Source: Escherichia coli (GTDB lineage: Bacteria > Pseudomonadota > Gammaproteobacteria > Enterobacterales > Enterobacteriaceae). From it: a stretch of 64,000 bases of DNA. The stretch lies in assembly GCF_003790525.1 (NCBI RefSeq), contig NZ_CP033632.1. One strand, written 5' to 3'. A program made the position numbers and the translations under genes. The notes beneath the pieces were generated by a model. It was given only the letters and a program-made list of their open reading frames with translations. It was not told the origin of the DNA and made no database searches. Positions 62,426 to 63,397 of this stretch are shown piece by piece (the stretch's first letter is position 1; the number at the start of each line of letters is the position of its first letter).

Positions 62426-62880
62426 GTGGACGAATATCCCATCATCGACCTGTCCCACCTGCTGCCGGCGGCCCAGGGCTTGGCCCGTCTTCCGGCGGAC
62501 GAGCGCATCCAGCGCCTTCGCGCCGACCGCTGGATCGGCTATCCGCGCGCAGTCGAGGCGCTGAACCGGCTGGAAGCCCTTTATGCGTGGCCAAACAAGC
62601 AACGCATGCCCAACCTGCTGCTGGTTGGCCCGACCAACAATGGCAAGTCGATGATCGTCGAGAAGTTCCGCCGCACCCACCCGGCCAGCTCCGACGCCGA
62701 CCAGGAGCACATCCCGGTGTTGGTCGTGCAGATGCCGTCCGAGCCGTCCGTGATCCGCTTCTACGTCGCGCTGCTCGCCGCGATGGGCGCGCCGCTGCGC
62801 CCACGCCCACGGTTGCCGGAAATGGAGCAACTGGCTCTGGCACTGCTGCGCAAGGTCGGCGTGCGCATGCTGGTGATTGT
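62426..62880 (+). pseudogene. tniB: tniB truncated after about 150 codons
   Basis: TniB N-terminus including the Walker A motif (GPTNNGKS) up to ...RMLVI, then an unrelated tail; right boundary approximate. Confidence 0.8.
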
Positions 62881-62983
62881 CGACAACCTCTCGCGCAACC
62901 AAGACATCGCGGTCGGACTGCAAGTGATCTTGAAGCCACGGGCCCGTCCCACCCCGACATGGACCTCGATGCCCGAACGGACG

Positions 62984-63397
62984 TTAGATTTCGAGTTCTA
63001 GGCGTTCTGCGATGAAGGTTGGATCCCAGCCGGGATTGAAAGTGTCGACGTGGGTGAATCCGAGCCGCTCGTATAGGCCACGCAGGTTCGGGTGGCAGTC
63101 GAGCCGCAGCTTGGCGCACCCCTGCGTTCGCGCGGCATGGCGGCAAGCCTCGATCAGCGCGGAGCTGACACCCCGGCCCGCATGTGTCCGTCGCACCGCG
63201 AGCTTGTGCAGATATGCGGCCTCCCCCTTGAGGGCGTCGGGCCAGAACTCGGGATCCTCGCCGACAAGGTGCAACAGCCGACGATGCCGTCGCTGCAACT
63301 CGCGACTAGGAGCTCGGATCTCAGGACGAAGGTCTCCGCGAATGTCCGGTCGATCCGCGCGACGTCCCAGGCGGGCGTTCCCTTGGCGGACATCCAC
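62984..63397 (-). CDS. orf5: orf5 of the class 1 integron 3'-conserved segment (GNAT-type acetyltransferase)
   Basis: C-terminus ...ALIEACRHAARTQGCAKLRLDCHPNLRGLYERLGFTHVDTFNPGWDPTFIAERLELEI. Confidence 0.75.
   Translation of the reverse strand: MDVRQGNARLGRRADRPDIRGDLRPEIRAPSRELQRRHRRLLHLVGEDPEFWPDALKGEAAYLHKLAVRRTHAGRGVSSALIEACRHAARTQGCAKLRLDCHPNLRGLYERLGFTHVDTFNPGWDPTFIAERLELEI

Follow-up and report, generated by a model that had tools for sequence, protein, structure and literature searches.

In all likelihood, the region examined here corresponds to the tni end of a class 1 integron of the In2 family, lodged in urf2 of Tn21, and it represents a deletion scar and not a working unit. In the window, i.e., the whole stretch of 64,000 nucleotides of Escherichia coli DNA that was analyzed (contig NZ_CP033632.1), tniB starts with a GTG codon at 62426 and is identical to tniB of Tn402 and Tn21 through 62877 (452 bp, 151 codons). 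It is then joined to the 3'-conserved segment (3'-CS) through a junction reading CATGCTGGTGAT/TG/TCGACAACCTC (positions 62877/62878-79/62880), which can also be read as CATGCTGGTGAT/TG/TCGACAACC, TCGACAACC being the first 3'-CS letters after TG. From 62880 on, the DNA is 3'-CS, and orf5, which lies on the minus strand, ends with a stop codon at 62984-62986, 104 bp after 62880. Judged from its sequence, the most fitting name for this structure would be an IS1326-less derivative of In2 in which the tniB deletion is extended. A sequence-only reading of this DNA had proposed that tniB is truncated after its Walker A region, that it runs into unrelated sequence about 100 bp before orf5 on the opposite strand and that it is joined directly to the 3'-CS without an intervening IS. 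All three points are borne out, and alignment to In2, one of the references then suggested for a check, did classify the junction as that of an IS-less In2 derivative in which tniB is cut at bp 452 and not at bp 855.

This classification relies on two blocks of alignment to R100 (NR1, NC_002134), the plasmid source of In2. The first one (window 55966-62877, R100 55-6966) is unbroken, with 99.96% identity from the mer-end terminal repeat (IRmer), near which the identity starts (55966 versus 55970), through tniB. The urf2/IRt boundary is collinear with that of R100 and the integron hence occupies the In2 site in Tn21, the urf2M position with IRt abutting urf2; IRt, tniA, tniB 1-452 and the 3'-CS are likewise identical between both. 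The second block (window 62880-64000, R100 11460-12581) covers the 3'-CS end, orf5 and part of sul1. Compared to the In2 of Tn21, R100 bases 6967-11459 are missing from the window. These 4,493 bp consist of 403 bp of tniBΔ1, which in R100 extends to base 7369 (855 bp), of the whole IS1326 with IS1353 inside it (7370-11455; 4,086 bp) and of 4 bp of 3'-CS (GATA, 11456-11459). The last base of IS1326 in R100 is 11455, and the 3'-CS continues from 11456 on as GATATCGAC, so that the 3'-CS of the window begins 4 bp inside the In2-type 3'-CS/IS1326 boundary (R100 11460 versus 11456), while tniB stops 403 bp short of the tniBΔ1 point.

Whereas the 3'-CS and tniBΔ1 of In2 are separated by IS1326, with or without IS1353, the alignment to R100 reveals no IS between tniB and the 3'-CS of the window, and TG, which occupies the place of the lost 4,493 bp, is the only sequence belonging to neither side. 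Regarding its origin, native tniB has CG at bp 453 and GT after bp 855, and TG is therefore not native to tniB; the native 3'-CS reads TA where TG stands, uninterrupted 3'-CS being GGAGGATATCGAC in three examples. IS1326 in In2 begins with TGTTGAG, and TG equals its bases 1-2. The earlier reading had allowed for an IS fragment gone unrecognized at the junction; such a fragment exists only in the most minimal sense, as this 2-bp probable scar. A 3'-CS end within 4 bp of the In2-specific boundary, the TG scar and the In2 site in urf2 together identify the integron as an In2 derivative that formerly carried IS1326. Since IS1326 is absent and R100 7370-11455 is missing, it is filed as a derivative and not as In2 itself, and since In2 keeps 403 bp of tniB that the window has lost, the window form is not ancestral to In2. 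All features are collected in Table 1.

Table 1. Features of the tni end of the integron and of the adjoining part of Tn21 in the window.
Feature	Position	Strand	Basis and remarks
Tn21 38-bp terminal inverted repeat, mer end (IRmer)	55970..56007	+	GGGGGCACCTCAGAAAACGGAAAATAAAGCACGCTAAG read directly
Tn21 mer operon	56003..59965	merR -, merT/P/C/A/D/E +	99.96% identity to R100 55-6966
urf2, EAL-domain gene	60001..60669	+	Pfam EAL, E=1.3e-54; 3' end cut by the integron insertion
IRt (presumed), 25-mer	60603..60627	+	TGTCATTTTCAGAAGACGACTGCAC read directly; inside the block identical to R100
tniA, intact, 559 aa	60744..62423	+	100% identity to Tn402 (R751) TniA, tblastn
tniB, native part	62426..62877	+	First 452 of 909 bp, codons 1-151; 100% identity to R751 TniB
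TG, 2-bp filler	62878..62879	+	Same as bases 1-2 at the left end of IS1326, of which it is a probable scar
tniB read-through tail	62880..63001	+	40 codons unrelated to TniB, stop 62999-63001; ORF translation
Distal 3'-CS end, spacer beyond orf5	62880..62983	-	Identical to R100 from base 11460
orf5, GNAT acetyltransferase of 3'-CS	62984..63482	-	Pfam Acetyltransf_1, E=6.5e-11
sul1, 3' part only, continues beyond the window	63610..64000	-	R100/L001 identity; ORF split

The coordinates of the mer genes were carried over from the R100 annotation and are consistent with the ORFs of the window, while the 25-mer at 60603-60627 was taken to be IRt from general knowledge of class 1 integrons. TniA gives a match to Pfam Mu-transpos_C (E=2.3e-10). 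The TniB remnant matches Pfam TniB (PF05621; E=1.5e-46) over profile positions 1-125 of 189; it retains Walker A (GPTNNGKS, aa 68-75) and is interrupted after I151 within Walker B (MLVIDE, aa 148-153), and it is hence short of the full-length domain with both Walker motifs. Its read-through tail and the 3' end of orf5 share 18 bp. Three 1-bp indels private to the window frameshift both genes of the 3'-CS: -G at 63260 and -T at 63477 break the orf5 frame, and +C at 63723 that of sul1. Neither in 1,766 E. coli records nor in at least 5,000 plasmids does any of them recur, and they are probably errors of the source sequencing or else private mutations inactivating sul1 and orf5.

The junction itself is genuine and widespread, and annotated public records already contain it. 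We searched 72,556 PLSDB plasmids with 42-bp probes placed across each junction and found that of the window (tniB452-TG-3'-CS) in 75 plasmids with a 100% match, the IS-less junction tniBΔ1-TG-3'-CS in 297, the In2 left junction (tniBΔ1/IS1326) in 494 and the In2 right junction (IS1326/GATATCGAC) in 535; a chimeric 42-bp probe for a hypothetical tniB452/IS1326 intermediate gave 0. The 75 plasmids come from Escherichia, Salmonella, Klebsiella, Citrobacter, Enterobacter, Leclercia, Serratia, Alcaligenes and Pseudomonas. They include Tn21 variants on pMNCN064 (LC623901), on pH2291-144 (NC_025139) and on Salmonella plasmids of ~290 kb, which have an identical junction and 99.8-99.9% identity to the window over the 1.2-8 kb compared, the differences being the three private indels and a few SNPs in mer and urf2. 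The IncP plasmid pMNCN064 carries a complete Tn21 with this junction (tnpA, tnpR, tnpM, intI1, cassettes, 3'-CS, tniB remnant, tniA, urf2 and mer); the far end of the integron (IRi, intI1, attI1 and cassettes) is thus present in relatives sharing the junction, while the window stops inside sul1 at 64000. The protein cluster of the TniB remnant bears a Salmonella Infantis name. Being identical in dozens of plasmids, the junction is already known as a sequence and is hence ordinary; no description of its exact form was found in the literature searched in full text, which provided background on In2, IS1326 and tniBΔ1/Δ2 and did not include Brown 1996, Partridge 2001 and Liebert 1999. The more frequent IS-less form is exemplified by E. 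coli p1540-3 (NZ_CP019054), with a dfrA12-aadA2 array, which has the same TG filler, the same 3'-CS breakpoint (TCGACAACC) and no IS1326, and which differs from the window in keeping all 855 bp of tniBΔ1, annotated as a 330-aa TniB fusion, versus 452 bp. Another plasmid considered as a carrier of this form, pAPEC-O2-R, was rejected because the In2 junction was found in it.

How the junction arose can be put forward with less assurance than what it is. Our tentative preference, which we hold at a little below an even chance, goes to two sequential deletions: In2 would first have lost IS1326, yielding the common form tniBΔ1-TG-3'-CS, and a 403-bp deletion inside tniBΔ1 would then have produced the window form tniB(1-452)-TG-3'-CS. 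This chain is supported by the abundance of the middle form (297 plasmids) and by the absence of the tniB452/IS1326 intermediate, the order of the two steps being its least certain part. The second deletion must, however, end exactly at the tniBΔ1/TG boundary, where no microhomology is available, and at least six further left flanks are found next to the same TG+3'-CS end, repeated deletions to one and the same base being unlikely. A microhomology deletion between two TCGAC copies was also considered and rejected, as it would give GGTGATCGACAACC in place of the observed sequence. No informative SNP separates In2, the tniBΔ1-TG form and the window, and descent among the three forms is untraceable for this reason.

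The recurrence of the same end elsewhere is an argument for a different route, in which the left end of IS1326 would have deleted into tniB (tniB452/IS1326) and the IS would then have been lost in a reproducible way, with TG kept and GATA removed; the same removal event would also yield the tniBΔ1-TG-3'-CS form. We regard this route, for both forms, as possible and rather unlikely. Public genomes and metagenomes were searched for the TG pattern, and a protein database for ORFs reading through the 3'-CS end. TG/TCGAC was found with at least seven different left flanks (loci L004, L012 and L016-L023), namely tniB cut at bp 452 (the window form) or at bp 855 (the tniBΔ1 form), tniA cut near bp 41 (in three contigs), part of a gene neighboring serS on the chromosome of Rubrivivax albus, the 3' fragment of a resolvase gene in Pseudomonas alloputida, where an intact IS1326 lies at a distance of 117 bp, an SMR gene of Agrobacterium that is accompanied by an empty integron, and a membrane-protein gene in a metagenomic sequence. 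A G at -3 is present in all seven and a C at -1 in six, a weak G-N-C motif also seen at the two genuine IS1326 left-end junctions examined (TGGCC/ in In2 and CCGGC/ in L019). Moreover, a parallel class of junctions, X/GATATCGAC, keeps the exact right boundary of IS1326 without the IS, X being merP (L024) and tniA in two examples. Such a multi-flank pattern fits better with IS1326 making X/TG joins that are followed by its reproducible removal. Against this route, the intermediate that it predicts occurs in 0 of the 72,556 plasmids, only 1 bp of microhomology is available at the excision, the left flank of the window ends in T and not in C, and a mechanism by which IS21-family elements would be excised reproducibly, with 2 bp left behind and 4 bp taken along, is not known to us.

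The two routes make different predictions. If IS1326 drives the process, many distinct X/TG and X/GATA junctions are expected upstream of TCGACAACCTCTCGCGCAACC, while sequential deletion predicts few of them. A junction X/TG/GGGTTTGATC at the type of boundary found in pAR060302 (IS1326/GCGTGGGTTTGATC) would mean that the footprint belongs to IS1326 and not to one ancestor. As a general property, that IS1326, a member of the IS21 family, leaves a reproducible excision footprint after adjacent deletions appears improbable to us; if true, it would be an undescribed route for the loss of the tni module by class 1 integrons. We also considered, and did not adopt, the idea that TniA could mobilize TG+3'-CS as a pseudo-end paired with IRi. 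In L020, the one locus where both ends are present, the 5 bp CCGAC before TG do not match the 5 bp TGTCG after IRi; parsed in another way, L020 shows a repeat of TGTCG, across which, however, the flanking gene is interrupted. The TG pattern had no match in viral contigs.

A single illegitimate deletion of 4,493 bp from In2, with TG as untemplated filler and a merely coincidental match to the other IS-less form, is very unlikely. One event would suffice for the window junction taken alone, and microhomology is absent at either breakpoint; the same 3'-CS breakpoint and the same filler would, however, have to recur in the form carried by 297 plasmids and in at least five other contexts.

Still more remote, to the point of being barely credible, is a separate integron lineage that never carried IS1326 and whose junction dates from the formation of the 3'-CS, as the word type in the sequence-only reading implies; the lack of any IS in the window could speak for it. 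It is contradicted by the alignments. Uninterrupted 3'-CS runs well past the endpoint of the window in In4-like and other integrons, which argues that this endpoint is not an original boundary: the IS6100-type integron of pEhoE1-3 shares orf5-sul1-qacEΔ1 with the window and its 3'-CS passes the breakpoint before any IS is met, and the 3'-CS of an IS6100-type comparator (L007) is longer than that of the window, where, unlike in the In4 type, no IS6100 stands at the outer 3'-CS end and no IS at all between tniB and 62880. The 3'-CS end lying within 4 bp of a boundary specific to In2, and an insertion site in urf2 that is the one of In2, argue in the same direction. Indeed, the IS1326 boundary in the 3'-CS is not the same in all integrons. 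pAR060302 (L006/L015) shares the orf5-sul1-qacEΔ1 3'-CS and has the same tniBΔ1 product beside IS1326::IS1353, but its 3'-CS is ~360 bp longer than the one of R100 (L003) before IS1326 is reached, and the window follows In2. The longer 3'-CS of pAR060302 is, in itself, consistent with a deletion adjacent to the right end of IS1326 in the R100-type In2 lineage. Finally, an assembly or sequencing artefact having collapsed the IS, to which the imperfect sequence quality suggested by the three private indels could point, has practically no chance of being correct and is ruled out by the 100% identity of the junction in 75 independent plasmid assemblies from at least nine genera.

Regarding mobility, Tn402 (Tn5090) of R751, whose TniA and TniB residues 1-151 are those of the window, has a full tniB (302 aa), tniQ and a recombinase-family gene, which we take to be tniR, none of which is found in the window. 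Tn402 is therefore taken to be self-transposable, and in the Tn402/Tn5053 family transposition requires tniA, tniB and tniQ while resolution requires tniR and res; of the four tni genes, only tniA is intact here. Indeed, in tblastn searches of the 64-kb window with the Tn402 proteins, only TniA and TniB 1-151 were recovered, and no TniQ, TniR or distal TniB. With tniQ, tniR and the rest of tniB absent from the 64 kb, the integron is presumably unable to transpose alone, and the 191-aa TniB remnant, having lost Walker B and everything past it, is predicted to be an inactive AAA+ fragment. The description of the integron as a tni-defective type dependent on helper functions, as given in the sequence-only reading, was hence partly right: the module is defective through the loss of Walker B, tniQ and tniR, and the integron constitutes no separate type, being a derivative of In2. 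The defect was not caused by this junction, since In2 with IS1326 is equally tni-defective, and In2 has been cited as a defective transposon derivative (PMC8155512). As for helper dependence, mobilization in trans by Tni proteins of the Tn402/Tn5053 type is conceivable as a secondary route, provided that IRi is intact; the integron most plausibly travels as cargo of the Tn21 backbone or of the plasmid, and cargo of Tn21, a transposon of the Tn3 family, is how the integron of the related plasmids moves. The window contains only the mer half of Tn21, the genes for TnpA and TnpR as well as IRi lying outside.

The junction is of value as a lineage marker of one widespread Tn21/In2 resistance branch, which includes large plasmids of Salmonella and E. 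coli associated with poultry. For annotation and epidemiological typing, the 42-bp junction probe cleanly distinguishes the 75 plasmids of this branch from the ~500 with In2 proper and from the 297 of the other IS-less branch. Its biological weight is small, the junction being in line with an integron that is immobile on its own, and the recurrent TG breakpoint, a small question on the behavior of IS21-family elements, is the sole element of possible wider interest.

Several observations made along the way concern other loci and the rest of the window. On the chromosome contig of Rubrivivax albus ICH-3, an environmental betaproteobacterium, a 2,014-bp block (L012:11621-13634) containing TG, orf5, sul1 and qacEΔ1 has 100% identity to clinical 3'-CS and adjoins serS; the sequence is unrelated on both sides, intI1 was not found within the stored flank and no Pfam family was matched in the left-flank ORF. 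On a chromosome contig of P. alloputida (L019:5548-8136), an intact IS1326 of 2,470 bp, devoid of target-site duplication, is separated by the resolvase 3' fragment from the TG/3'-CS junction 117 bp apart, which suggests that IS1326-adjacent deletions also occurred in this context. A protein from Pseudomonas aeruginosa (P0004) discloses an independent IS-less junction, in which tniB ending in GCGATCAAC is joined to AGATATCGAC; it corresponds to loss of the DNA between an ATCAAC of tniB and the ATCAAC(A) with which IS1326 terminates on its right side, and IS1326 has therefore been lost by more than one route. In the window itself, the part from ~36000 to 55970 appears to be a mosaic, as judged from the annotation of the closest matching plasmids and not from the window ORFs. 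It would hold P1-like phage-plasmid genes (phd/doc, C1 repressor, terminase, late promoter activator and integrase) and a dms-type reductase operon, and a Tn1721 tet(A)-tetR segment appears to adjoin IRmer; by analogy with these plasmids, the upstream region would be a Tn1721/Tn21 hybrid resistance region set in a phage-plasmid-like backbone.
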